Shown: piece by piece, positions 29,482 to 42,773 of the stretch
How the letters are laid out: every line of letters begins with the position of its first letter
Numbering within the stretch: the first letter of the stretch is position 1
The notes under the pieces: generated by a model
What the model saw: the letters and a program-made list of their open reading frames with translations, nothing else
What the model was told of the DNA's origin: nothing
The model's database searches: none
Translations under genes and position numbers: made by a program
DNA from: an uncultured cyanobacterium
GTDB lineage: Bacteria; Cyanobacteriota; Cyanobacteriia; Cyanobacteriales; CAWUOF01
Assembly: GCA_963744145.1 (NCBI GenBank)
Contig: CAVUSO010000001.1
Span: 7,424,001 to 7,488,000 of the forward strand
DNA length: 64,000 bases
Direction of reading: 5' to 3'

Positions 29482-30220
29482 CAGCAATATTAGATCCGAA
29501 TGCTTCGCCCTTCTTCTGCGCCGAGCTCCCCAAAAATTCTGAACTGAATGGATTGTAATATCTAGTTGATCTGTTGGCTACATAGATGGCAGGGCAAAGC
29601 ATTTCGGTAATATTATTCTTCCCTTCGACTACGCTCAGGGTAAACGCTTCAGCAATTATTTATTCGCCGAAATGCTTTGCCCCTACGAGGAACTGAACTG
29701 GATTGATATTTAATCAGCGATCGCTAGCAGATCAATCGGGTGTAGGGGCGAAGCATTCGGGCGATAATTTACCGCTTCAACCAGTAATATTAGATCCGAA
29801 TGCTTCGCCCTTCTTCTGCGCCGAAATCCCCAAAAAATTCTTAACTGAATGGATTGTAATATCTAGTTGATCTGTTGGTTGCATAGATGGTGAGGGCAAA
29901 GCATTTCGGTAATATTATCCTTCGCTTTAGCAATTATTTATGCGCCGAAATGCTTTGCCCCTACAAGGAACTGAACTGGATTGGTATTTAATCAGCGATC
30001 GCTTGCCGATCAATCGGATGTAGGGGCGAAGCATTCGGGCGACAATTGAACAATCAAACTTTACCCTGAGCGTAGTCGAAGGGCAGCAATATTATATCCG
30101 AATGCTTCGCCCTTCTTCTGTGCCGAAATCCCCAAAAATATTATAGTTTAAGCAACTAATGAAATGCTGCAAACCTCATTCCTACGTCATCCAATTTTTC
30201 TGAAAAATATTGTTGATCTT

Positions 30221-31640
30221 GGTTCTACCGAACTATCTATGTAAAAATATTAGTTATTAGCTCGTAAAACTCCCAATTAAATAATTAATTTATATCTGAA
30301 AAATTACTGACGTGATTGACTTTGGGCGATTTTTATGTTTAAATTGGATTAGAATAATTAAGTACATCTAAGTAAAAATTGACAGCTATGGCATCTTCTT
30401 CTCAACTTCATCTAATGACTTCATTGCTGAATAGTCAAGAATTTAAAGTAGTAGATTATCAATTTCAAGAAGGGATCGGGATATTTTTACGACTAGAAAA
30501 ACGAGAATTAAAAGTTAAATGTCCTTGTTGTGAAAGCCTCACAGATAAATTACATCAAAATCATTGGTATGTAGTAAGAGATTTGGCTTTTGGTGAACAA
30601 CAAATATATTTAAAAGTCAATCGTCGTCAAATGAGATGTGACCAATGTGGCCACAAATTTAGTGAAGAGTTAAATTTAGTGAAGAAGAAAAGAAATTATA
30701 CTGAAAGATTAAGAAATAAAATTATTAAGGAAGTTTTGTCAAGTGACATAAAAAACGTGGCGATACGGTACGGATTTAGCGAGCAAGAAGTAGAGACAAT
30801 GTTAAAAGAATTAGGCGCAGAATTAATGAAAAAAAAGCCCGAAAATTTACAGCGGTTAGGAATCGATGAAATTGCCGTAGTAAAAGGGCAAAAAAATTAT
30901 TATGTAGTGTTAATAGATCTTGACCAAGGAATTGTATTAGGAATTATCGAAAACCGCAAAAAAGCCGAGATAGAAAAATACCTAGAAGCTTGGGGAGAAG
31001 AGGTTTTGGGGCAAATCCAAGAAGTAAGTATTGACCTCTGGCAAATGTATAAAAATATCGCCGAAAAATTGATACCTCAAGCAGAAGTAATCGCCGATAG
31101 ATTTCATGTAATGAAGCAAGTACAGGATGAACTAGATCAAGAAAGAAGGAAAACGAAAAGAACCGCAGAGCCATTGAAAAATAACCAAAAAAAAGAGCAA
31201 ATATTAGGCGGATTAACTAAGAGTAAATATGTCTTACTTAAAAATGAGAAAGATTTAAATGATGATGAATCTCAACGACTTAAATTAGTTAAAAAAGTTG
31301 CTCCAAAATTAGGAAAAATGCATGAGCTCAAAGAAAAATTTAGAAATATTTATGAGTCCAGTAAAGATTGGGTAGAAGGAATATTTAATTTCGCTGATTG
31401 GTTAAAAGAAGCTCAAGATTATTTCCCTCATAGTTGTGGGACAATTATCCGATGGATTGGAGAAATTATTGCCTATTTCGATCACCGAACTACTCAAGGA
31501 GTAGTCGAAGGAATTAATAATAAGTTAAAATTGATTAAAAGGCGTGGCTATGGCTTTAGGAATTTTGATAATTTTCAGCTCAGAAGTATTTTAACTTGGC
31601 ATTTTGCTAGTTAGTTTTACATAGATAGTTCGGTAGAACC
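30221..31640 (+). mobile_element. ISL3-family insertion sequence
   Basis: 26-bp perfect inverted repeat GGTTCTACCGAACTATCTATGTAAAA; 8-bp target duplication TTGATCTT (30213-30220 and 31641-31648). Confidence 0.93.
30379..31614 (+). CDS. ISL3-family transposase
   Basis: CPCC zinc finger, LGIDE, DRFHV, EGINNKLKLIKRRGYGFRNF. Confidence 0.93.
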   Translation: MTAMASSSQLHLMTSLLNSQEFKVVDYQFQEGIGIFLRLEKRELKVKCPCCESLTDKLHQNHWYVVRDLAFGEQQIYLKVNRRQMRCDQCGHKFSEELNLVKKKRNYTERLRNKIIKEVLSSDIKNVAIRYGFSEQEVETMLKELGAELMKKKPENLQRLGIDEIAVVKGQKNYYVVLIDLDQGIVLGIIENRKKAEIEKYLEAWGEEVLGQIQEVSIDLWQMYKNIAEKLIPQAEVIADRFHVMKQVQDELDQERRKTKRTAEPLKNNQKKEQILGGLTKSKYVLLKNEKDLNDDESQRLKLVKKVAPKLGKMHELKEKFRNIYESSKDWVEGIFNFADWLKEAQDYFPHSCGTIIRWIGEIIAYFDHRTTQGVVEGINNKLKLIKRRGYGFRNFDNFQLRSILTWHFAS

Positions 31641-31664
31641 TTGATCTTTTAAAAAAGTTATATG

Positions 31665-33098
31665 TTAGAGTTTAGAGAACAGAAAAGAAGACCCCGATGC
31701 TCCACTCTCAAGGTTGCACCCCCGTCCATTCACCCCCGCAGCCGCACAACACGGGAAGTGACCTAGCGGAGCAGCGCTATTAAAAGTGAGGTCAGAGTAG
31801 TTCAACCAGTTTCCTCCTTTTCTCCAGCCGACTTGATCTGCTAGTTTAACATAAGTATCCCAATCATAACTATCTAGCTTACCACCCAATTTGAGCCAGA
31901 TTTTCTTCTGGACTGAAAACCCAAATTTGTCATTAGAATACTTTAACCACAACTGGTCAATGAGCCGCAGTTCATTTTTCGGAAAATTACGACAGTTATT
32001 TGCTGTTAAGGATCTCTCTTCTTCCCTGTTCATAATTTTTAACATGACTCGAGTAGTTTCTTGATCTGCTTTTTGCCATTTTTTGTCTGATAATAATTGC
32101 TCCAGTTTTCTCAAATCAGCTCTAGATGTAACTAAATTAACTTGGGGTGCTGGAGCAAAATTAACTTGGGGTGCTGGAGCAGGTGTAGGAGAAGTAGGTT
32201 TTGGAGAAGAGCTAGTAGAATGAGGTATTTTAACATCCCCAACTTGGAGTGATGGAGCAGGTGTAGGAACCGTCATAGCATTTAACACCATTGTTGCTGT
32301 CCATCTTTTTTCTCGATCTTTTTCTAATGCTCCCTGGATGATCTCCCGATATCTTTGACTAATTTTTGACCATTCTATGCTCGGTTCTTCCTGAATTACT
32401 TTTACCATCAATTGCTGTTCTGTCTCCCCGATAAAGGGCAACTTTCCTGTCAGCATTTCTGCCATGATTACTCCTAATGACCATATATCCCATCCTGTTG
32501 CTACTACTCCCTCATAAGCTTCCGGTGGTGCGTATTCACTTGTCCCTTTTCTACTACTTGTCCTTGCTGATTTCCCAGAATTGATTGACCTCATTAACCC
32601 AAAATCTGCTAACTTCCAATGCTCCCCAACTTTAATCACATTTGCTGGTTTTACATCCCGATGTACTCGACCCTCTGGTTCTTGATGTAAATAAACTAAT
32701 GCAGCACCGATTTCCTTGACGATTTTCTCTACTTCCTCCTCTCCTAATGCCCCTGGCTTTTGCTCTAGAAGTTTTGCTAGTGTTTCTGCTCCTAATTCCA
32801 TCACTAAGTACAACATTTCTCCGATTTTAATTTGAGTTAACCCTGGCGCATAACAACGAATTAAATGTAGATGATCTAACTTTACTGCTGCAATTAATTC
32901 TTCCAGTTGTTTCTCCCGATTTTTCTGATCTCCTTCGGGTGAAATTAGCTTTACTGCTACTTGACGAATTAGCCGATCGCCTACGACTTCATCGGCACGG
33001 AAAACTGCCCCATATCCGCCCACTCCTAAGAGTTCTTTCAGGTAATATTTTCCGTCAATACATTCTGCCTCTAACAGTCGCCACAATTGTTCATTCAT
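31665..33098 (-). CDS. Ser/Thr protein kinase with one C-terminal GUN4 domain (copy A)
   Basis: LGVGGYG, VAVK, HRDVKPAN, DFG, YAPPE; GUN4 motifs WQKADQET, IDQLWLKYS..KFGFSVQKKIW, GHFP. The ATG at 33098 overlaps the PP2C remnant's stop. Confidence 0.9.
   Translation of the reverse strand: MNEQLWRLLEAECIDGKYYLKELLGVGGYGAVFRADEVVGDRLIRQVAVKLISPEGDQKNREKQLEELIAAVKLDHLHLIRCYAPGLTQIKIGEMLYLVMELGAETLAKLLEQKPGALGEEEVEKIVKEIGAALVYLHQEPEGRVHRDVKPANVIKVGEHWKLADFGLMRSINSGKSARTSSRKGTSEYAPPEAYEGVVATGWDIWSLGVIMAEMLTGKLPFIGETEQQLMVKVIQEEPSIEWSKISQRYREIIQGALEKDREKRWTATMVLNAMTVPTPAPSLQVGDVKIPHSTSSSPKPTSPTPAPAPQVNFAPAPQVNLVTSRADLRKLEQLLSDKKWQKADQETTRVMLKIMNREEERSLTANNCRNFPKNELRLIDQLWLKYSNDKFGFSVQKKIWLKLGGKLDSYDWDTYVKLADQVGWRKGGNWLNYSDLTFNSAAPLGHFPCCAAAGVNGRGCNLESGASGSSFLFSKL
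31688..31751 (-). other. Hypervariable GUN4 C-terminal segment, copy A (64 nt)
   Basis: Lies between the GHFP codons and the constant CTTTTCT anchor; unalignable with the four sister segments. Confidence 0.8.
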
Positions 33099-33339
33099 CA
33101 CCTTCAATTCCTGCTTGAACTTGAATAGCAATCACCGTAATATTATCATTACCACCATGTTCTAAAGCTGTTTCTAGACAAGTTTGAGTCAGGTTTTCCA
33201 TTGAGTTTTCCCACTGTTGCACTAAATCTAGTAACTCATCGTCTCTGACTTCACCATGTAATCCATCGCTATATAATATTAAAACATCTCTACCAAGATA
33301 ATTCCGATAACTTTTTATGTTCATCCCATTTTGGATCAA
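33091..33339 (-). pseudogene. PP2C-family phosphatase, C-terminal remnant
   Basis: DVLILYSDGL...GGNDNITVI; N-terminal half is absent. Confidence 0.8.
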
Positions 33340-33392
33340 CTGTCTGACACAATAGGATCATATCAATCAATCAAAACTCGCTAGCAAGCACT

Positions 33393-33713
33393 ATGACTAC
33401 TCTATTAATGCTTCAACCCTCATCTCTAATCTCCTCTGGTGTTAAAATGAGGCAATTCGGTAATATTTATTTATTCAAGTTTACCGATGAACTCCAGTTT
33501 TGCTTTGAAGAACTTTTAGAAAAGAAAAAAGCTCATATACTCACTCCTGACGAAGAAGCTGAATATATGGGAATATCAGAACTAGAGCAGATTTTTACCC
33601 TAATTAACGCTCAACTTGCAGCCAAAAGCCAATGGTGTCCAACTCAACTCGAAGACTTGTACGACGACGAGCCCGATACCTCTGTGAATACTGTCATTCC
33701 CCCGAATATCTAA
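33393..33713 (+). CDS. Hypothetical protein, antitoxin-like, upstream of an HNH remnant
   Basis: ELLEKKK..LTPDEEAEY pattern; overlaps the HNH fragment. Confidence 0.55.
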   Translation: MTTLLMLQPSSLISSGVKMRQFGNIYLFKFTDELQFCFEELLEKKKAHILTPDEEAEYMGISELEQIFTLINAQLAAKSQWCPTQLEDLYDDEPDTSVNTVIPPNI

Positions 33714-33790
33714 GCCCAGACCGTTTCACAATACTACGTTGCGATCGCCATGACTACCCTGTATCATACCTAGCATCAGCAACGATATAA
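33632..33790 (+). pseudogene. Truncated HNH endonuclease
   Basis: Manual translation MVSNSTRRLVRRRARYLCEYCHSPEYLSPDRFTI, then loses similarity just before the expected DH motif. Confidence 0.65.
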
Positions 33791-33983
33791 TTAGTATTGA
33801 AGATTTAATTAACCGATCGCCATTCATAAAATTCATCAAATATACGGGTTAACTTACTCCTACCTTAACCCAATATTTTTTTAGCGATCGCTATGATTAA
33901 TAGTTCAGGCGATCGCTTCTCCCTAGTCAAACTTATTTAACCAACATATTTAGCGATCGCATTTAACTGTTATCTTTACCAGC

Positions 33984-34110
33984 GCGATCGCTTGCCGATC
34001 AATCGGGTGTAGGGGCGAAGCATTCGGGCGATAATTTATCACTAAAAACCGTTAATATTATATCCGAATGCTTCGCCCTTCTTCTTCTGTGCCAGCTCCC
34101 CAAAAATATC
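33984..34110. repeat. Half unit (hairpin A) of the REP-like repeat downstream of kinase copy B
   Basis: GTAGGGGCGAAGCATTCGG at 34009; same context as array unit 7, which lies downstream of copy A. Confidence 0.85.
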
Positions 34111-34204
34111 ATAGTTTAAGCAACTAATGAAATGCTGCAAACCTCATTCCTACGTCATCCAATTTTTCTGAAAAATATTCTTGATCTTTTAGAAAAGCTA
34201 TATG

Positions 34205-37200
34205 TTAGAGTCTAGAGAAGAGAAAAGAGATTCCCCAAACACCACCCCACACCCACAGAACCCCCCCGACAGCCCGCCCCTCCCACACTGGGAGGTGTCC
34301 CATAGGAGCAGAGATATTAAAAGTGAAGTTAGAGTAGCTGCTCAACCAGTTTCCTCCTTTTCTCCAGCCGACTTCATCTCCTAATTTAACATAAGTATCG
34401 GAATCATAACTATCTAGCTTCCCACCCAATTTGAGCCAGATTTTCTTCTGGACTGAAAACCCAAATTTGTCGTTAGAATACTTTAACCACAACTGGTCAA
34501 TCATCCGCAGTTCATTTTTCGGAAAATTACGACAGTTATCTGCTGTTAACCATCCCTCTTTTTCCCTGTTCATAATTTTACACATAACTCGAACAGTTTC
34601 TTGATCTGCTTCTTGCCATTTTTTGTCTAATAATAATTGATCAAGTTTCCTCAAATCAGCTCTAGATGTAACTAAATTTTCTTGGGGTGATGGAGCAGGT
34701 GTAGGAGAAGTAGGTTTTGGAGGAGAGCTAGTAGAATGAGGTATTTTAACATCCCCAACTTGGGGTGATAGAGCAGGTGTAGGAACCATGTTAGAGTCTA
34801 GAGAAGAGAAAAGAGACAATCCAAACCCCCACCCAACCCACACCCCCAAACCAAACACACCACCAGCCGGGAGGTGTCCCGCAGGAGCAGAGATATTAAA
34901 AGTGAAGTTAGAGTAGCTGCTCAACCAGTTTCCTCCTTTTCTCCAGCCGACTTCATCTCCTATTTTAACATAAGTATCGTAATCATAATCTAGCTTCCCA
35001 CCCAATTTGAGCCAGATTTTCTTCTGGACTGAAAACCCAAATTTGTCATTAGAATACTTTAACCACAACTGGTCAATCATCCGCAGTTCATTTTTCGGAA
35101 AATTACGACAGTCATCTGGTGTTAACCATCTCTCTTTTTCCCTGTTCATAATTTTACACATAACTCGAGCAGTTTCTTGATCTGCTTCTTGCCATTTTTT
35201 GTCTGATAATAATTGATCAAGTTTCCTCAAATCAGCTCTAGATGTAACTAAATTTTCTTGGGGTGATGGAGCAAAATTAACTTGGGGTGATGGAGCAGGT
35301 GTAGGAGAAGTAGGTTTTGGAGAAGAGCTAGTAGAATGAGGTATTTTAACATCCCCAACTTGGGGTGATGGAGCAGGTGTAGGAACCATGTTAGAGTCTA
35401 GAGAAGAGAAAAGAAGACAATGACCATTCAGTTCTCCCACCAAAAATCCCCCACCCCCACCCCCAGGTAAGTGACCTAGGGGAGCATAGATATTAAAAGT
35501 GAGGTCAGAGTAGTTTAACCAGTTTCCTCCTTTTCTCCAACCGACTTCATCCCCTAATTTAACATAAGTATCGGAATCATAACTATCTAGCTTCCCACCC
35601 AATTTGAGCCAGATTTTCTTCTGGACTGAAAACCCAAATTTGTCATTAGAATACTTTAACCACAACTGGTCAATCATCCGCAGTTCATTTTTCGGAAAAT
35701 TACGACAGTTATCTGCTGTTAACCATCCCTCTTTTTCCCTGTTCATAATTTTACACATAACTCGATTAGTTTCTTGATCTGCTTCTTGCCATTTTTTGTC
35801 TGATAATAATTGATCAAGTTTCCTCAAATCAGCTCTAGATGTAACTAAATTTTCTTGGGGTGATGGAGCAAAATTAACTTGGGGTGATGGAGCAGGTGTA
35901 GGAGAAGTAGGTTTTGGAGGAGAGCTAGTAGAATGAGGTATTTTAACATCCCCAACTTGGGGTGATGGAGCAGGTGTAGGAACCATATTAGAGTCTAGAG
36001 AAGATAAAAGAGACCCATCCCCCAAACCCACCCACCAACACCCCACCACAACCCAACCAAATAACGGGAGGTGTCCCCTACGAGCAGAGATATTAAAAGT
36101 GAGGTCAGAGTAGTTCAACCAGCTTCCTCCTTTTCTCCAGCCGACTTCATCCCCTAATTTAACATAAGTATTTGAATCATAACTATCTAACTTCCCACCC
36201 AATTTGAGCCAGATTTTCTTCTGGACTGAAAACCCAAATTTGTCATTAGAATACTTTAACCACAACTGGTCAATCATCCGCAGTTCATTTTTCGGAAAAT
36301 TACGACAGTTATCTTCTGTTAAGTATCCCTCTTTTTCCCTGGTCATAACTTTCAACATGACTTGAGTAGTTTCTTGATCTGCTTCTTGCCATTTTTTGTC
36401 TGATAATAATTGATCAAGTTTCCTCAAATCAGCTCTAGATGTAACTAAATTTTCTTGGGGTGATGGAGCAAAATTAACTTGGGGTGATGGAGGAGGTGTA
36501 AGAGAAATAGGTTTTGGATGAGAGCTAATCGGAGCAGGTGTTTTCGTCATAGCATTTAACACCATTGTTGCTGTCCATCTTTTTTCTCGATCTTTTTCTA
36601 ATGCTCCCTGGATGATCTCCCGATATCTTTGACTAATTTTTGACCATTCTATGCTCGGTTCTTCCTGAATTACTTTTACCATCAATTGCTGTTCTGTCTC
36701 CCCGATAAAGGGCAACTTTCCTGTCAGCATTTCTGCCATGATTACTCCTAATGACCATATATCCCATCCTGTTGCTACTACTCCCTCATAAGCTTCCGGT
36801 GGCGCGTATTCACTTGTCCCTTTTCTACTACTTGTCCTTGCTGATTTCCCAGAATTGATTGACCTCATTAACCCAAAATCTGCTAACTTCCAATACTCCC
36901 CAACTTTAATCACATTTGCTGGTTTTACATCCCGATGTACTTGACCCTCTGGTTCTTGATGTAAATAAACTAATGCAGCACCGATTTCCTTGACGATTTT
37001 CTCTACTTCCTCCTCTCCTAATGCCCCTGGCTTTTGCTCTAGAAGTTTTGCTAGTGTTTCTGCTCCTAATTCCATCACTAAGTACAACATTTCTCCGATT
37101 TTAATTTGAGTTAACCCTGGCGCATAACAACGAATTAAATGTGGATGATCTAACTTTACTGCTGCAATTAATTCTTCCAGTTGTTTCTCCCGATTTTTCT

Positions 37201-37372
37201 GATCTCCTTCGGGTGAAATTAGCTTTACTGCTACTTGACGAATTAGCCGATCGCCTACGACTTCATCGGCACGGAAAACTGCCCCATATCCGCCCACTCC
37301 TAAGAGTTCTTTCAGGTAATATTTTCCGTCAATACATTCTGCCTCTAACAGTCGCCACAATTGTTCATTCAT
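34205..37372 (-). CDS. Ser/Thr protein kinase with four tandem GUN4 domains (copy B)
   Basis: Kinase domain differs from copy A at 3 residues by eye; four GUN4 repeats with anchor spacing 597, 600 and 586 nt. Confidence 0.9.
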   Translation of the reverse strand: MNEQLWRLLEAECIDGKYYLKELLGVGGYGAVFRADEVVGDRLIRQVAVKLISPEGDQKNREKQLEELIAAVKLDHPHLIRCYAPGLTQIKIGEMLYLVMELGAETLAKLLEQKPGALGEEEVEKIVKEIGAALVYLHQEPEGQVHRDVKPANVIKVGEYWKLADFGLMRSINSGKSARTSSRKGTSEYAPPEAYEGVVATGWDIWSLGVIMAEMLTGKLPFIGETEQQLMVKVIQEEPSIEWSKISQRYREIIQGALEKDREKRWTATMVLNAMTKTPAPISSHPKPISLTPPPSPQVNFAPSPQENLVTSRADLRKLDQLLSDKKWQEADQETTQVMLKVMTREKEGYLTEDNCRNFPKNELRMIDQLWLKYSNDKFGFSVQKKIWLKLGGKLDSYDSNTYVKLGDEVGWRKGGSWLNYSDLTFNISARRGHLPLFGWVVVGCWWVGLGDGSLLSSLDSNMVPTPAPSPQVGDVKIPHSTSSPPKPTSPTPAPSPQVNFAPSPQENLVTSRADLRKLDQLLSDKKWQEADQETNRVMCKIMNREKEGWLTADNCRNFPKNELRMIDQLWLKYSNDKFGFSVQKKIWLKLGGKLDSYDSDTYVKLGDEVGWRKGGNWLNYSDLTFNIYAPLGHLPGGGGGGFLVGELNGHCLLFSSLDSNMVPTPAPSPQVGDVKIPHSTSSSPKPTSPTPAPSPQVNFAPSPQENLVTSRADLRKLDQLLSDKKWQEADQETARVMCKIMNREKERWLTPDDCRNFPKNELRMIDQLWLKYSNDKFGFSVQKKIWLKLGGKLDYDYDTYVKIGDEVGWRKGGNWLSSYSNFTFNISAPAGHLPAGGVFGLGVWVGWGFGLSLFSSLDSNMVPTPALSPQVGDVKIPHSTSSPPKPTSPTPAPSPQENLVTSRADLRKLDQLLLDKKWQEADQETVRVMCKIMNREKEGWLTADNCRNFPKNELRMIDQLWLKYSNDKFGFSVQKKIWLKLGGKLDSYDSDTYVKLGDEVGWRKGGNWLSSYSNFTFNISAPMGHLPVWEGRAVGGVLWVWGGVWGISFLFSRL
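34228..34288 (-). other. Hypervariable segment, GUN4 repeat 4 (61 nt, terminal)
   Basis: Encodes VWEGRAVGGVLWVWGGVWGI; 53 of 61 nt are G/T on the coding strand. Confidence 0.8.
34814..34867 (-). other. Hypervariable segment, GUN4 repeat 3 (54 nt)
   Basis: Encodes AGGVFGLGVWVGWGFGLS; 51 of 54 nt are G/T. Confidence 0.8.
35414..35464 (-). other. Hypervariable segment, GUN4 repeat 2 (51 nt)
   Basis: Encodes GGGGGGFLVGELNGHCL; 41 of 51 nt are G/T. Confidence 0.8.
36011..36064 (-). other. Hypervariable segment, GUN4 repeat 1 (54 nt)
   Basis: Encodes LFGWVVVGCWWVGLGDGS; 51 of 54 nt are G/T. Confidence 0.8.
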
Positions 37373-37689
37373 CACCTTCAATTCCTGCTTGAACTTGAAT
37401 AGCAATCACCGTAATATTATCATTACCACCATGTTCTAAAGCTGTTTCTAGACAAGTTTGGCTCATATTTTTTAAGCGGTTCTGAAGGTAAGAGCTGATT
37501 TAATAATTCTCGAAAAGTATTAATGGCAATTTCTGATGCTCTTTTTCTTCCCTTACGTCCCTCCATTCCATCCGCAACTACTGCTAGTAAAGCAGATTGA
37601 GCTGACCAGAATTCTAACAAATGATTGTCTTCATTGACTGGACGAACTTTACCCGTATCAGTTTTAGAATTGTAGATTAGTTGTCTCAT
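37365..37689 (-). pseudogene. PP2C-family phosphatase with large internal deletion
   Basis: TDTGKVRPVNED...VADGM N-terminus joined out of frame near 37460 to the GGNDNITVI C-terminus. Confidence 0.8.
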
Positions 37690-37927
37690 ATTAGAATTTG
37701 CTCGATTACATATTTTCACCTATCTTCATGCGATTCTGCAAGAACATTTTTGTTCCACAACCCTGACAAAACTTAGATTGAGGGGAGTTTTCCTAGGGAC
37801 AATTAGGGTTAAGACATTTAATAAGGTTACTCATAATTTTGGAAACCTGATGTGCTAAGATCAATTAGGTAATCCGATCATATCAGAAAAATTAATGGTG
37901 TTGCTGATGATCGGCAGACACCTCGAA

Positions 37928-38834
37928 TAATCAGGTAATTCCTGGTTTAGCGATTCCCCAACAAACCATATTCAAAGGCGATCGCGAAAATTTAGCGATC
38001 GCTGCGGCTAGTATTGTTGCTAAGGTATGGCGTGATGATTTGATTGTGCGTTTGGCGGTTAAATATCCTGAATATGACTTGACAAACAATAAAGGTTATG
38101 GTAGTGCTAAACATATATTAGCTTTACAACGTTATGGTGCTTCGGCACAACATCGTCTTTCGTTTCGCCCTTGTCGTGTCAGTCATGAAATTTAAAATTG
38201 TTACGGCTGTATTTGGGCTAATCTGTTTGAGCTGGGCTGATCGAGCGATCGCTCAATATCGGACCGATCGTCCAACTTTTTATCAAGATGGACAACAACA
38301 ATTAGAAAGAGAAATTAATCGTTTAAACCAAAAAAAACCAGATAATTTGCTGACAATTGACAGTGAACCGATTCATTGGCAAGAATTTAAGTTTAAACCA
38401 GGTAATTTTGCTGTTTTAATCCCGAATACTCTGATCGATCAACAAGATACTTTAAGTACGACTGAGGGCACTCTAGATTTAAAAGAGTTTAGCACACAAA
38501 CAAATTCTTTACGGTTAGTAGTAGCTTATTCAGACTATCTATCAACGGCTAATTTAAGCAACTCCGAGGTAGTTTTAGCGAATGTGCGCGATCGACTTGT
38601 TGATAAGTTAGGGGTTAAATTAGTTAGGGATAGTTCGATTACACTAGGTGATTATCCTGGTAAAGAACTAAAGTTGCAAAGTTCAACTGAGCAGATCATA
38701 TTTAGGCTATTTTTAGTTAAACAGCGTCTATATATTGTCGGAGTTACTCAGAAAAACAACGTTGATAGTTCAAAAGATATGGCCAAGTTTTTAGCTTCGT
38801 TTCGATTAATAAAATAAATCAAATCAATTCTAAT
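37928..38834 (+). repeat. Direct repeat copy 2 (contains an rnhB 3' fragment to 38195)
   Basis: Near-identical to 25099..26005. Confidence 0.9.
38185..38817 (+). CDS. Exported hypothetical protein, paralog of 25356..25988
   Basis: Same length and highly similar sequence. Confidence 0.7.
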   Translation: MKFKIVTAVFGLICLSWADRAIAQYRTDRPTFYQDGQQQLEREINRLNQKKPDNLLTIDSEPIHWQEFKFKPGNFAVLIPNTLIDQQDTLSTTEGTLDLKEFSTQTNSLRLVVAYSDYLSTANLSNSEVVLANVRDRLVDKLGVKLVRDSSITLGDYPGKELKLQSSTEQIIFRLFLVKQRLYIVGVTQKNNVDSSKDMAKFLASFRLIK

Positions 38835-38926
38835 TAATCTACTCGCTTTTACTACTAATTCTCAATAAGCAATAGATCACCAATCAGTACGATACCTTAA
38901 AGTGGAAAGTATATTAAATCAATAAC

Positions 38927-39670
38927 ATGAAGCTAGACTATTTACCAACCGAAAAATTTTTGGCATATCCACATCAGTTTCTCGGTAAAGTTTTAGTCGT
39001 AACTTCTTGTACTGGGGAGAAACGTTACAAACCTGAAAATCAATTGACAATAGAGGATTTTAAAGAAAAAGCTCGATTCCAACAACAAGAAGCACAACTT
39101 ACTCAATTTGCTTATCCTGCAAGTCAGATGTATACAGGGACACAACACCTACGAGCAATGGAAGGAGTTAAATTACTGCGTCAGTTCCTTGGACAGGAAG
39201 TTGTAGATGTGGTGATTTTGTCTGCGGGCTATGGTTTAATTTCTGAGAACAAAACTATTGTACCATATCAAGTCACCTTCAACACAATGAAAGGTTACGA
39301 GATCGATGAGTGGGCAAAGTTTCTGGGAATACACCAAGCTTTTGAACAAGCTATTGTTGGTTATGATTTGGTGTTTATATTGCTGGGAGAAAATTATTTG
39401 CGATCGCTTTGTCTCCCTGTTGAAACTTACGATAAGCAAACTTTTATTTTTTTAGCATCGCATCGAGGTGCCAATTATATTCGAGATTTAGCTGCAAAAG
39501 CTTATGTCCTACATCTTGCCAACGCCGATGCTAAACATTACCATTATGGATTAGTAGGTTTGAAAGGATTTTTGTTCAAAAGGTTTGCTGAATGCGTTAC
39601 AAGAGAATGGACGCTACTAAAAAAGATTTATGACCAACCAGAATTATTTGTCCAGATTGTTAGATCCTGA
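38927..39670 (+). CDS. DpdA-associated protein (DUF6884/YaaA-like)
   Basis: VVTSCTGEK, ASQMYTG, ILSAGYGLI..PY motifs; overlaps the dpdA-like gene. Confidence 0.6.
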   Translation: MKLDYLPTEKFLAYPHQFLGKVLVVTSCTGEKRYKPENQLTIEDFKEKARFQQQEAQLTQFAYPASQMYTGTQHLRAMEGVKLLRQFLGQEVVDVVILSAGYGLISENKTIVPYQVTFNTMKGYEIDEWAKFLGIHQAFEQAIVGYDLVFILLGENYLRSLCLPVETYDKQTFIFLASHRGANYIRDLAAKAYVLHLANADAKHYHYGLVGLKGFLFKRFAECVTREWTLLKKIYDQPELFVQIVRS

Positions 39671-41045
39671 GTCTGTTCAGCTAGAGATACCATTAGAACT
39701 GCCAAAAGTCAAGCTTTCTCTTAAATCGGTTAAGAATCCAAGAATTGGTAAGTCTGAAGACAAAGAACTGATTCCTATTCCTGATGTCCCGATCGCTCCT
39801 AATTTAGATTTGGGAATGCAATATTTTATTCCTGAATGGGACGATCGCGTAGACCCTCACTATAATTTTTTGGATGATGCTCTGACACCGGGTCGAGACT
39901 CTTACAATGATGATTTATATGCTCATCAGATTTATAACAGTCCTAACTATAATGGAATTTTAGTTTCTAAGGGAATTGTCGAGCGTAGTAAAAAAAAGAA
40001 AGCACTAATTGAAAAAATAGGAATTCACAAATTTATCCGATTTTCAGGTTCAGTAATGGGAGATTGTGGAGCTTTTGGATATATCAATCAAGAGGTTCCT
40101 CCCTATAATACAGAAGAAATTCTAGAATACTATGAACGCATCGGATTTGACTATGGAGTGAGTATAGATCACCTGATTGTTGGATCATTTGCTGAATCCG
40201 GAGTGAGGGAAAAAAGATACAATTTAACCATAAAGAATGCAGAAGATTTTATCCATAAGCATCGAGCGATCGGATATAAATTCACTCCCATTGGTGCAGT
40301 TCAAGGGTGGGACCCAAAATCTTATGCTAATGCGGTCAAAGACTATATTAAAATGGGCTATAAATATATTGCATTGGGGGGACTAGCTAGGACTCCTAGC
40401 AAAGAGATTCTAAAAATATTAGAAAGTATTCACCCACATTTAACTTCCCAAACTCAGATGCACCTGTTTGGGGTAGGACGACTCAATGCTGTTCCAGCTT
40501 TCCGTCATTTAGGAGTAACCAGTTTTGATTCTGCAAGTCCATTGCGTAAAGCTTGGCTGGATTCAGCCGCAAATTACCATACTTTAGATGGTAAAACCTA
40601 TGCAGCTATTCGCATTCCTAAAGTAGATGGCTATGGGGTGCGTATTAAGCGATTGTTGGAAGCAGATGTATCAGATCGGGCAACCCTAAAAAGTCTTGAG
40701 GAAGATGCACTTACTAAACTGCGGGAGTTTAATTTAGGTCTTGTTACTTTAGAGTCAACCCTCTCATCACTACTTGCTTTAGACGAGTTACTAGAATTAC
40801 CTCGTGATGGTCAGGTAAACTCTCAAGAAAAAGCCAGACGCTTACATAGACACACGCAAATGTATCAGGAGCTTTTGGAGGAACAGCCTTGGAAGAAATG
40901 TGATTGTGTAATCTGTCAAGAAATTGGGATTGAAGTTGTAATTTTCCGAGGAAATGATCGTAACCGTAGACGTGGCTTCCATAATACCTATATTTTCCAT
41001 AAGCGCTTTAATGCCTTACTTAAAAATGAAAAATTTTTGAACTAA
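39630..41045 (+). CDS. dpdA: DpdA-like tRNA-guanine transglycosylase paralog (DNA 7-deazaguanine insertion)
   Basis: YFIPEWDDRVDP, MGDCGAF, SIDH, AVQGW, ALGGL, HLFG, SFDSAS, CDCVIC and RNRRRGFHN zinc-site motifs. Confidence 0.78.
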   Translation: MTNQNYLSRLLDPESVQLEIPLELPKVKLSLKSVKNPRIGKSEDKELIPIPDVPIAPNLDLGMQYFIPEWDDRVDPHYNFLDDALTPGRDSYNDDLYAHQIYNSPNYNGILVSKGIVERSKKKKALIEKIGIHKFIRFSGSVMGDCGAFGYINQEVPPYNTEEILEYYERIGFDYGVSIDHLIVGSFAESGVREKRYNLTIKNAEDFIHKHRAIGYKFTPIGAVQGWDPKSYANAVKDYIKMGYKYIALGGLARTPSKEILKILESIHPHLTSQTQMHLFGVGRLNAVPAFRHLGVTSFDSASPLRKAWLDSAANYHTLDGKTYAAIRIPKVDGYGVRIKRLLEADVSDRATLKSLEEDALTKLREFNLGLVTLESTLSSLLALDELLELPRDGQVNSQEKARRLHRHTQMYQELLEEQPWKKCDCVICQEIGIEVVIFRGNDRNRRRGFHNTYIFHKRFNALLKNEKFLN

Positions 41046-41055
41046 AGAGGATTCA

Positions 41056-41636
41056 GTGGAAAAGAAATTTTTGCCGCTCTTCTCTATGGACCACGCGGGT
41101 CTGTTAAGAAAGTTGAAGGATATAGAAGGAGATTACGGGATTCTAGCTCCCCTTTCCTGCCCAAAAAATCTTCTTAAAGATATTCGCAATACAGGTAAAC
41201 TTTTCTTTATTGACAGTGGTGTTTTTGAAAATCAAGCTCCTCCCTGGTACTACCAACTTCATTGTGAGTTCCTTCAGCAGCGATGGGTGCGAGAATTACG
41301 TTTGACTTCGGAACAACAATTAAGACAGAGGGTAAAAGACTATTTGAGTTTATGTGACATGATATTGGCTATCAGTGCATTGCTTTGGGAGGTTTATTAA
41401 AAGCCGACACTACTATGCCAACTGGTTTGAGGTTTGGTTTATCCGCTCAGGAACTAGATGAATTACTTACATGGGCTAGACCTGAATTGGTTTTAGGAGG
41501 TCTGGCTTTAAGCCGTATAGAAGTCCTCAAGAAACACAATGTTTGGGCTGATTCTACCAATTGGCTCTGGTGGGATGCTCGTTATGATCGGCAAAGGTTT
41601 GGACATCGGAATGTTTTTCAGGAAATTTTAGGGTGA
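41056..41636 (+). pseudogene. Fragmented second TGT-barrel-like gene
   Basis: FIDSG in the first ORF; GGL and ADSTNW in the second, different frame. Confidence 0.5.
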
Positions 41637-41678
41637 ATATTGTCATTACCCGTCAACAACAGTAGTATAACCATTCAA

Positions 41679-42773
41679 TTAGATAAGACCATTTACTGGG
41701 GCAACACCAACAAATTCACGCAGTGTCTTATGACACAAATCTACGGTTGTCTTTGTATTGGAAATAATCGGTTCTCCTTTAGCACCAACTTGTGTTACTC
41801 CTCTTTCTCGCCATCAAGCATTCTCGCGCTGCCACTCTATCTTTCGGAGCCGATATAACCATTGAACAATATCTTCTTCAGGAATAGCTTCTAGATAGAA
41901 TTCATGAGCCAGCATTCCTAATGCTTGGAATACAATAGCTGTTACTGCAAGTGAATTCTGTCTTTGCTTAGTGCGTTCCTCTTTACTTTTAATGCTCCAC
42001 GGGTCGTTAGGTAGAACACTCGCGGTTGCTGCCCAGAATGTGGTTGCCCAGCTAGTTAGTGGCTCCAAACCCTCTTTAGATTTTAAATAAGGGAACATAT
42101 GTCGGGTAGCTGTAACTAGGGTAGAAAATGTCAGCAATTTGGAATTATGTTTACCTAAGCCGTTTTCAACCATCTCTACATTGTTACGGAACTGAGGGAC
42201 TCGCTTAATCAAGTCTTTGGCAATTAAAACCACAGGCGATCGCTGATCGAAAGCGTGAGAGAGCGACACGCTTGGTCTTTGAACTAGAAGGTTTTGATCG
42301 CGGAAAGCTTGACGTTCCTCCTCCAATGACAGTCCAGCATATAAAAGTACCCCAATTTCAAGTTGAGAAAGGATTGGTAGATATTCCCACTGTTCAACTT
42401 GGATGTCTTTTAGTGCTTGACGGATACCAAAACATCTATGCTGACCGTCTGTCAAACCCAGAGTAACCGAGTGGTAAGGAAGAAAGATGCTGCCATTGCT
42501 ATAAGTCGGTGATAGTTGAACATTTACACAAATCGGTGGGAAAAACGTAGTACCAACTTGGTAAGTCTCCAGAATATACCGGGCGATCGCTTTAACTCTC
42601 GTAGCGTTGGGTTTGCGTTGAGCAAAATCTGGCAAATCTGACTCATTGGGAACATAAAGGCGATCGTCATTTAGCAGTCGGGCGACATCGCCAAAAAACA
42701 GAGAGCCAACATAACTTTGATGTTCACTCTGTGGTCCCCGACAAACAGGTACAGCTCGAATTACAAGTTCCAT
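41679..42773 (-). pseudogene. DGQHR/DndB-family (DpdB-like) protein with in-frame TGA at 41814-41816
   Basis: AQR, FFPPI, DGQHR, QAFRDQN motifs; the frame continues for 44 codons after the TGA (WRERGVTQ...NGLI*). Confidence 0.75.

Follow-up and report, generated by a model that had tools for sequence, protein, structure and literature searches.

In passages of their survey of conflict systems, Kaur, Burroughs, Iyer and Aravind (eLife 2020, PMC7159879) describe GUN4 as a tetrapyrrole sensor, and GUN4 fused to kinases and caspases has been reported from cyanobacteria (PMC7159879; PMC7517822). In those passages of PMC7159879 the domain is joined to kinase, caspase, TIR, vWA and NACHT-type modules, as it is in the locus described here and in its homologues; they hold no mention of a hypervariable loop or of a frame-tolerant gene end. 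Here, we describe two neighbouring Ser/Thr kinase genes, copy A with one C-terminal GUN4-like domain and copy B with four in tandem, from an uncultured cyanobacterium (assembly GCA_963744145.1, contig CAVUSO010000001.1, positions 7,424,001 to 7,488,000; this whole stretch of 64,000 nucleotides (nt) is referred to as the window). We consider it likely that copy B represents a genuine tandem expansion, specific to this lineage, of a gene-end module in which loop length picks the reading frame. Coordinates are window positions, the array genes are all encoded on the minus strand, and the genome comprises 7.7 Mb.

Cyanobacterial Ser/Thr kinases with a C-terminal CLec/FGE domain are targets of diversity-generating retroelements (DGRs) (PMC7517822). 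As far as the account of these targets in that paper goes, they share with the array a signalling N-terminus and a C-terminal binding domain with a hypervariable extreme end. The mode of variation is different, however, as DGRs act adenine-specifically, preserve length and need a template repeat, whereas the GUN4 loops vary in length from 51 to 88 nt. A search of the genome for a template repeat revealed no second copy of any loop. No reverse transcriptase gene was found near the locus, and the three reverse transcriptase matches in the genome all lie more than 2 Mb from the window. The variable region of a DGR target also has an invariant stretch of DNA along its 3' border, a feature in common with the GUN4 loops. 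In contingency loci, e.g., the Neisseria opa genes, coding repeats set the reading frame and a tract of variable length decides on continued translation. As in such opa-type loci, a variable tract within the open reading frame (ORF) decides translation in the array. In contrast to them, the gene ends described here are productive in all frames, the cassette is invariant in length, and the variable tract is aperiodic with short runs only. Our literature searches returned no account of a hypervariable loop with G/T bias at the Gun4 ligand site, of a pyrimidine cassette serving as gene end in all three frames, or of an array that retains its stops and reads past them. GUN4 fusions, the Gun4 fold and its pocket, tandem domain arrays and DGR-varied kinase sensors are already known, and the locus is best regarded as a combination of two elements, a tandem domain array and a hypervariable sensor loop.

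The kinase domain (PF00069) was identified in both copies by a profile match (E 2e-45) together with the catalytic HRDVKP motif (HRDVKPANV), and the GUN4 domain (PF05419) of copy A scored 136 bits against a curated cut-off of 29.2. When the five GUN4 units of the window are aligned, their DNA is near-identical except for one unalignable island per unit, located between the GHLP codons and a pyrimidine stretch. Each unit proceeds from GHLP through a G/T-rich loop of free length and sequence to a 23-nt pyrimidine cassette with staggered stops. The cassette core TCTTCTCTAGACTCTAA is present five times in the window, four times exactly and in copy A with two mismatches; 0.17 occurrences were expected from shuffles, and none of 100 shuffles gave five. 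The features of both genes are as follows.

31665..33131, minus strand: copy A, Ser/Thr kinase with one GUN4-like domain, 488 residues (Pkinase E 2.3e-45, GUN4 E 1.3e-39)
31665..31687, minus strand: copy A cassette, two mismatches to the consensus; frame a, FLFSKL and TAA
31688..31751, minus strand: copy A variable loop ('tip'), 64 nt, 3n+1
34205..37405, minus strand: copy B, Ser/Thr kinase with four tandem GUN4-like domains, 1066 residues (GUN4 matched in four stretches, E 1.1e-164)
36554..37318, minus strand: copy B kinase domain, residues 30-284
35985..36545, minus strand: unit B1, with shortened first linker (KTPAPISSHPKP...), GUN4, loop and cassette, then TAT
36011..36064, minus strand: B1 loop, 54 nt (3n), G or T at 50 of 53 scored bases
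35988..36010, minus strand: B1 cassette, CTTTTATC variant; frame b, LLSSLDSN, with TAG and TAA out of frame
35388..35984, minus strand: unit B2, 597 nt, with A-type linker, GUN4, loop and cassette, then CAT
35414..35464, minus strand: B2 loop, 51 nt (3n), with (GGGGGT)x3
35391..35413, minus strand: B2 cassette, exact consensus; frame b, LFSSLDSN
34788..35387, minus strand: unit B3, 600 nt, with A-type linker, GUN4, loop and cassette, then CAT
34814..34867, minus strand: B3 loop, 54 nt (3n)
34791..34813, minus strand: B3 cassette, exact consensus; frame b
34205..34787, minus strand: unit B4, terminal, with A-type linker minus one 24-nt repeat, GUN4, loop and cassette
34228..34288, minus strand: B4 loop, 61 nt (3n+1), with a G7 run and a G-quadruplex motif
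34205..34227, minus strand: B4 cassette, exact consensus; frame a, FLFSRL and TAA, with the third stop TAG 4 nt beyond (CATATAG)
34075..34204, minus strand: B4 3' flank, about 130 nt, common to three dispersed paralogues (86-98% identity over the cassette and 100 nt)

Loop length was taken as the distance between the Pro codon of GHLP and the 23-nt cassette CTTTTCTCTTCTCTAGACTCTAA. The three internal loops, B1, B2 and B3, measure 54, 51 and 54 nt and are multiples of three; the terminal loops of B4 and A measure 61 and 64 nt (3n+1) and lead to SFLFS(R/K)L*. These are the same figures as in an initial annotation of this DNA. The cassette and its 3' flank, CTTTTCTCTTCTCTAGACTCTAACATATAG, contain the stops TAG at positions 14-16, TAA at 21-23 and TAG at 28-30, and the pyrimidine-only stretch of the cassette specifies Leu, Phe and Ser codons in all frames. 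A 3n+1 loop consequently ends at TAA in frame a (SFLFSRL* in B4, SFLFSKL* in A), a 3n+2 loop at the first TAG in frame c (LFSLL*), and a 3n loop passes both TAG and TAA to reach the third stop in frame b (LFSSLDSNI*). In the internal units, the ATAG that would follow TAA(C/T)AT is replaced by GGTTCCTACACC, the start of a linker. The third stop is therefore lost at the array junction, and 3n loops continue into the next linker, reading L(F/L)SSLDSNM-VPTP. The initial annotation had claimed that the internal repeats keep a cassette with two stops and have had the third removed, and the junction, identical in all three cases, agrees with this. Its reading of the internal cassette as LFSSLDSNM applies to B2 and B3 only, as one substitution in the B1 cassette turns this into LLSSLDSNM. 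Loop length modulo three sets which of the three staggered stops is met.

In the genome as a whole, window included, nine GUN4-linked cassettes were found, six of them exact 23-mers. Frame a is used by five of them (A, B4 and three dispersed genes), frame b by three (the internal units) and frame c by one, in a TPR-GUN4 gene 11 kb past the window with a loop of 59 nt. The three dispersed paralogues, which have a B4-like 3' flank, carry unrelated N-terminal parts. Across this subfamily loop lengths span the range of 51-88 nt given above, while the cassette itself is constant in length.

To place the cassette in a wider context, 219 homologues were gathered, including six from this genome; 174 have a scorable tail, and some are close relatives, so the counts are not independent. 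Among the endings, 18 are SFLFS[KR]L* (frame a), 17 are of the LFSLL* type (frame c) and seven are LFSSL[DN][SY]N[TIP]* (frame b); longer motifs account for others, 43 ending in ...SRxxxC(N/K)(L/I) and 33 in ...SR(K/R)DL, and 56 end otherwise. A DNA scan for a 20-nt cassette pattern, with one genome per species, returned 16 loci (Dolichospermum, Anabaena, Cuspidothrix, Gomphosphaeria and others); one hit, in a non-cyanobacterial record, is apparently due to chance. A GHLP anchor could be placed at 10 of the 16 loci, giving five LFSLL*, three LFSSLDY(N/K)P* and two premature stops under the automatic anchor; six had no anchor. Throughout the family, the cassette acts as a gene end that tolerates any frame: all three are in use in this genome and in other cyanobacteria, and these endings show the same DNA cassette closing genes naturally in each frame across cyanobacterial orders. 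The initial annotation's proposal that length sets the frame thus held in so far as the same cassette is found in frames a, b and c here and elsewhere; the working switch between one and four domains that it derived from this was not supported, as discussed below. In a genome of the same family, a homologue (G001, L032 760-850) has LFSLLL* as its ending, behind which lie two or three partial tandem copies of the cassette (...CTCTAAACTCTAATACATAGCTTTTCT CTAGGTCTCTAATATATAGCTTTTCT...); this indicates that the cassette region is duplication-prone. The cassette of this homologue matches at 96%, compared to 83% for its domain.

The junction of the array, CTCTAA(C/T)AT followed by GGTTCCTACACC, occurs three times in the genome, at the array only, and the repeat periods in copy B are 597 and 600 nt. 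A regular period and one shared junction are what a tandem domain array formed by unequal recombination displays. The internal linkers (VPTPAPSPQVGDVKIPHST...) are those of copy A between kinase and GUN4 and are unlike copy B's own first linker (KTPAPISSHPKP...), which lacks 39 nt of the A-type linker and shows further differences; the linker comparison made in the initial annotation is thereby confirmed. The linkers contain a 24-nt tandem duplication (AP(S/A)PQVNF twice) at 35241-35297, 35838-35894, 36438-36492 and 32134-32181, which is absent in B4. The kinase regions of A (32280-33131) and B (36554-37405) are identical at 896 of 900 aligned nt, with one synonymous and three non-synonymous codon changes, whereas the GUN4 units of A and B are only about 90-92% identical. 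This break in identity falls exactly at the linker start, which is also the junction point of the array.

Each repeat unit extends from the linker through GUN4, the loop and the cassette with its stops to 3 nt of the 3' untranslated region (UTR). That the array was built from whole gene-end cassettes, as had been proposed, agrees with these linker-to-3'UTR units and with one illegitimate junction present three times. By a single illegitimate join, the start of a kinase-GUN4 linker (GGTTCCTACACC...) may have come to lie directly behind the third 3'UTR nucleotide after TAA (...CTCTAACAT), and unequal recombination would then have multiplied this junction to give four units of about 600 nt each. 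The present state, with all internal loops 3n, is probably maintained by selection for the full-length four-GUN4 kinase. The junction ATGs (34788-34790, 35388-35390 and 35985-35987) are in frame with the next unit and lie 1 nt past the out-of-frame TAA, in the context TAACATG, or TAATATG at B1/B2. An indel in one of the internal loops would cut the kinase short, and downstream units would perhaps restart at the junction ATG; such re-initiation behind a frameshifted loop might release free GUN4 units. On the plus strand, antisense ORFs of 42-60 residues start from the ATG complementary to the junction CAT, and ORFs of 53-57 residues lie opposite each GUN4 unit; both were treated as by-products of repeated stop-poor DNA.

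A kinase remnant lies outside the window (G000:C1, about 2896270-2896890, minus strand). It extends through HRDVKP, and after no more than about 10 nt the same cassette (...GCFSFLFYRI*) is joined to it, which points to a deletion whose 3' end lay at the loop/cassette border.

Tandem GUN4 arrays as such are common, with at least two units in 75 and at least three in eight of the 219 homologues. Four units were found in the copy B protein alone, and the same holds for its junction and its read-through of retained stops; read-through is therefore not a recurrent design. The multi-GUN4 kinases and caspases of other cyanobacteria, e.g., the Nostocales arrays joined by ...FSRVETCKL-FPVQERQPQIIPTPQP..., resemble copy B in having tandem units behind a kinase, caspase or other module and a different loop after GHLP in each unit. 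In the other cyanobacterial arrays, however, the C-terminal motif is in its normal frame and the stop has been lost, whereas in copy B both stops are present and bypassed by frame.

A structural model of unit B4 was predicted with a mean predicted local distance difference test score (pLDDT) of 88.4. Its loop residues 128-139 fall below 50, and the cassette forms a terminal helix at residues 142-150. The loop is thus predicted to be disordered, with a short terminal helix behind it for which the cassette codes. In a Foldseek search the top 10 structural matches of this model were all Gun4/GUN4 structures, with template modelling (TM) scores of 0.74-0.81, the best being 1z3x (TM 0.81). True Gun4/GUN4, the cofactor of Mg-chelatase (PDB 1Y6I, 1Z3X, 4XKC), shares its fold and Pfam family with the array units. 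Where true Gun4 continues with the Arg214/Arg217 segment and helices alpha7 and alpha8, however, the array units have the G/T-encoded variable loop and an end of 7-9 residues. In its account of the porphyrin pocket, the structural study of Synechocystis Gun4 (PMC1084334) places Leu207 and Pro208 in the alpha6/alpha7 loop that shapes the pocket and models Leu210, Arg214 and Arg217 as porphyrin-holding. The sequence match of the units to true Gun4 stops at GHLP, just before Arg214 and Arg217, and the porphyrin-binding Arg pair is not conserved after GHLP, where a G/V/W-rich loop is found instead. As GHLP corresponds to the Leu207/Pro208 site and the next residues contact the ligand, the variable loop would replace the ligand-contacting end of the alpha6/alpha7 loop. 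By homology, we infer that it is located at the C-terminal end of the porphyrin-binding alpha6/alpha7 loop.

Loops of this kind are not restricted to the array. The genome has 54 GUN4 matches, on kinases, caspases, STAND/NACHT-like, vWA-like and TPR proteins or alone, and about 40 of them show GHLP, a loop and a short conserved end. G+T reaches at least 0.70 in 24 of 36 loops, compared to about 0.50 in the domain body, and the bias follows the coding strand on either genomic strand. The true Gun4 gene of this genome has a G+T of only 0.39-0.42 at the loop position. In the loops, G amounts to 0.41, 0.38 and 0.33 at codon positions 1, 2 and 3, and T to 0.31, 0.32 and 0.38. GGG makes up 38% of the Gly codons in loops as against 12% in the domain, and third-position G or T in Gly codons 0.73 as against 0.40. 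As the bias extends to all codon positions and to synonymous sites, it acts at least partly at the DNA level, beyond a preference for Gly, Trp and Val. Among the homologues, G, V, W, C, L and F together account for 0.54 of the loop residues versus 0.29 in the remainder of the same proteins (n=174). At least nine of the genome's 84 canonical G-quadruplex motifs fall into GUN4 loops (about 2-3 kb of DNA), and local tandem repeats were significant in three of nine loops (summed P = 0.006). A donor copy or template for the loops was not found in the genome, and no Rfam family matched within 30000-39000 of the window. We also considered whether deamination (A to G, C to T) could have produced the loops from a common ancestor. 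This was rejected, as the purine/pyrimidine patterns differ; the comparison was made by eye for B1 and B3 only and is weak.

The loops differ far more than their surroundings. For the five loops of the window, all 10 pairs aligned no better than composition-matched shuffles (P > 0.1), and no residual homology was detected. Around the nine subfamily loops the flanks are 90-97% identical upstream and 86-98% downstream; for the array loops (51-64 nt) the values are 92-97% and 98%. Synonymous divergence (dS) between array units is 0.027-0.085, and the ratio of non-synonymous to synonymous divergence (dN/dS) is 0.47-1.34, based on small counts, which suggests relaxed or diversifying selection on the body of the GUN4 domain, too. 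As the junction arose once, one loop should have been the source of all internal loops. Turnover of the loops probably far outpaces that of the flanks and would proceed by a local process in G-rich DNA, prone to indels and duplications, under diversifying selection.

Several observations weigh against a real expansion with fast-changing, frame-setting loops. In other lineages, orthologues carry stable loops: nine proteins with 1-11 residue differences have an identical loop, and where orthologues are 85-98% identical in protein sequence, their loops are the same or can be aligned. Fast turnover may therefore be specific to this lineage or only apparent. In the 30 nt leading up to the loop, diversity climbs gradually, synonymous changes in GHLP included (0.19-0.23 versus a mean of 0.08). 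The units are also mosaics, the 5' half of B2 grouping with B3 and B4 and the part near its 3' end with A and B1. The model of unit B3, read in frame b, gives a helix at 136-143 at a pLDDT of about 60, i.e., at low confidence. The idea that the loops are kept free of stops in all frames was rejected, as seven of 36 are open in all three and off-frame stop density is 0.055 compared to 0.077 in domain bodies. A second strain or allele was not found among 40 related genomes, in a related-locus search or in two metagenome scans. In these searches, 14 of the 40 genomes gave a match, with a close homologue (83% over the GUN4 part) only in one fragmentary genome of the same family; the related-locus search returned one locus, from this same genome; and the metagenome scans for the junction and for the cassette with UTR gave zero matches each. 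One public soil metagenome run contained 0.61 of the sampled words, in short contigs only and with zero depth in several bins, and none of the short contigs listed from it spans the array. The array is thus taken from the assembly alone. No RNA run containing the locus was listed.

The alternative that survives best, although we regard it as rather unlikely, is concerted evolution only. According to this, the array and the dispersed paralogues have a long history in which the loops diverged at an ordinary pace, while gene conversion homogenised bodies, cassettes and linkers and the non-homologous loops escaped. The rise in diversity towards the loop, with its synonymous variation in the GHLP codons, and the mosaic units fit conversion that homogenises the flanks around old loops, and the near-identity of the A and B kinase regions next to their less similar GUN4 units and the loop stability of orthologues in other lineages also favour this explanation. 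The 3' border of the loop, unlike the gradual 5' side, is sharp. What speaks against old loops is that each loop of 51-64 nt is enclosed by near-identical DNA on both sides. A conversion tract spanning both flanks should bring the 50-nt loop along, yet no two loops are alike and nine of nine match themselves alone in the genome. The single origin of the junction, which implies that the internal loops began as one, is likewise at odds with it. We therefore lean towards real fast loop turnover over conversion around old loops.

A more far-reaching version of fast turnover, which we consider doubtful, is that GHLP, loop and cassette form a dedicated diversification module, in which G/T-only DNA of any length is made between a selected 5' motif and the invariant pyrimidine cassette, every frame is usable, and in the array a length lottery sets the number of domains. 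New loop DNA might then be generated by break repair at G-quadruplex-forming DNA or by an unknown polymerase, untemplated or templated, and the cassette could have evolved to provide a usable Leu/Phe/Ser helix and a stop in each frame, so that no loop would be wasted.

The initial annotation had gone further and proposed a switch, in which changes of loop length toggle the kinase among one, two, three and four GUN4 domains, so that a new specificity brings a new valency, as in a contingency locus. The logic is sound: any indel in B1, B2 or B3 that is not a multiple of three ends the protein at TAA or TAG, the loops are rich in G-runs and contribute the G-quadruplex motifs counted above, loops of near-identical units are entirely different, and all three frames are used in nature. 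Phase-variable tracts are, however, usually longer than G5 or T5, and no run in an internal loop exceeds this length. A long homopolymer or perfect short repeat, as is typical of phase-variable contingency loci, was not found in the internal loops, B2 alone having a short (GGGGGT)x3. The G7 run is restricted to the terminal B4 loop, where a frameshift alters just the last few residues. All three internal loops are in frame, for which the chance would be about 1/27 if lengths were free; purifying selection on the full-length protein would give this result. The searches for a second strain or allele described above found none, orthologous loops are stable elsewhere, and no other array among the 219 homologues keeps out-of-frame stops. 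Coupling of specificity to valency by such a switch is therefore not supported, and we judge a working switch, regulated or frequent, improbable.

That the four units are alleles or paralogues wrongly joined in assembly, as a repetitive region covered by only the non-spanning short contigs and zero-depth bins of one run might suggest, is very improbable, given that the chromosome is a single 7.63-Mb contig without N, that the three junctions share one novel sequence present nowhere else in the genome, that every unit has its own substitutions and its own loop, and that the frame stays open across 1066 codons.

Fragments of a PP2C phosphatase gene lie 5' of both kinase copies, at 33091-33339 and 37423-37719 (both minus strand). 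On the copy A side only the C-terminal 82 codons of PP2C are present; on the copy B side there is an N-terminal ORF of 98 codons, whose continuation into the last 60 nt, common to both, is out of frame. The two loci therefore seem to derive from an ancestral PP2C-kinase operon that was duplicated and disrupted. An intact ISL3-family transposase gene is located at 30379-31614 (plus strand), 50 nt downstream of copy A, and the 3' flank of copy A departs from that of the other paralogues about 25 nt past the stop. A hairpin repeat of the GGGGCGAAGCATTCGGGCGA...TCGCCCGAATGCTTCGCCCC type is found 3' of copy B (33985-34085); it recurs 3' of the dispersed paralogues and has very high depth in the soil run. 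Just upstream of the locus, 38927-42773 encodes a DUF6884 protein, a TGT-like protein (471 residues) and a DndB-like protein, a set which we take to resemble a 7-deazaguanine DNA-modification (Dpd-type) cluster.

Few C-terminal sensor modules are as common as GUN4-like domains on the kinases, caspases, NACHT and vWA proteins of cyanobacteria. In these domains, the segment at the Gun4 ligand site is a hypervariable loop with a G/T bias at the DNA level, which in one subfamily is followed by a three-frame gene end. The hypervariable loop marks the likely site at which specificity is encoded. The four-GUN4 gene is a natural reporter, because an out-of-frame loop would show as a shorter protein; its full-length product of about 117 kDa and the junction peptide ...SLDSNMVPTPAPSPQVGDVK would serve as markers of read-through. 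Fast turnover of such loops, if real, would represent length-tolerant receptor diversification in bacteria without a DGR.

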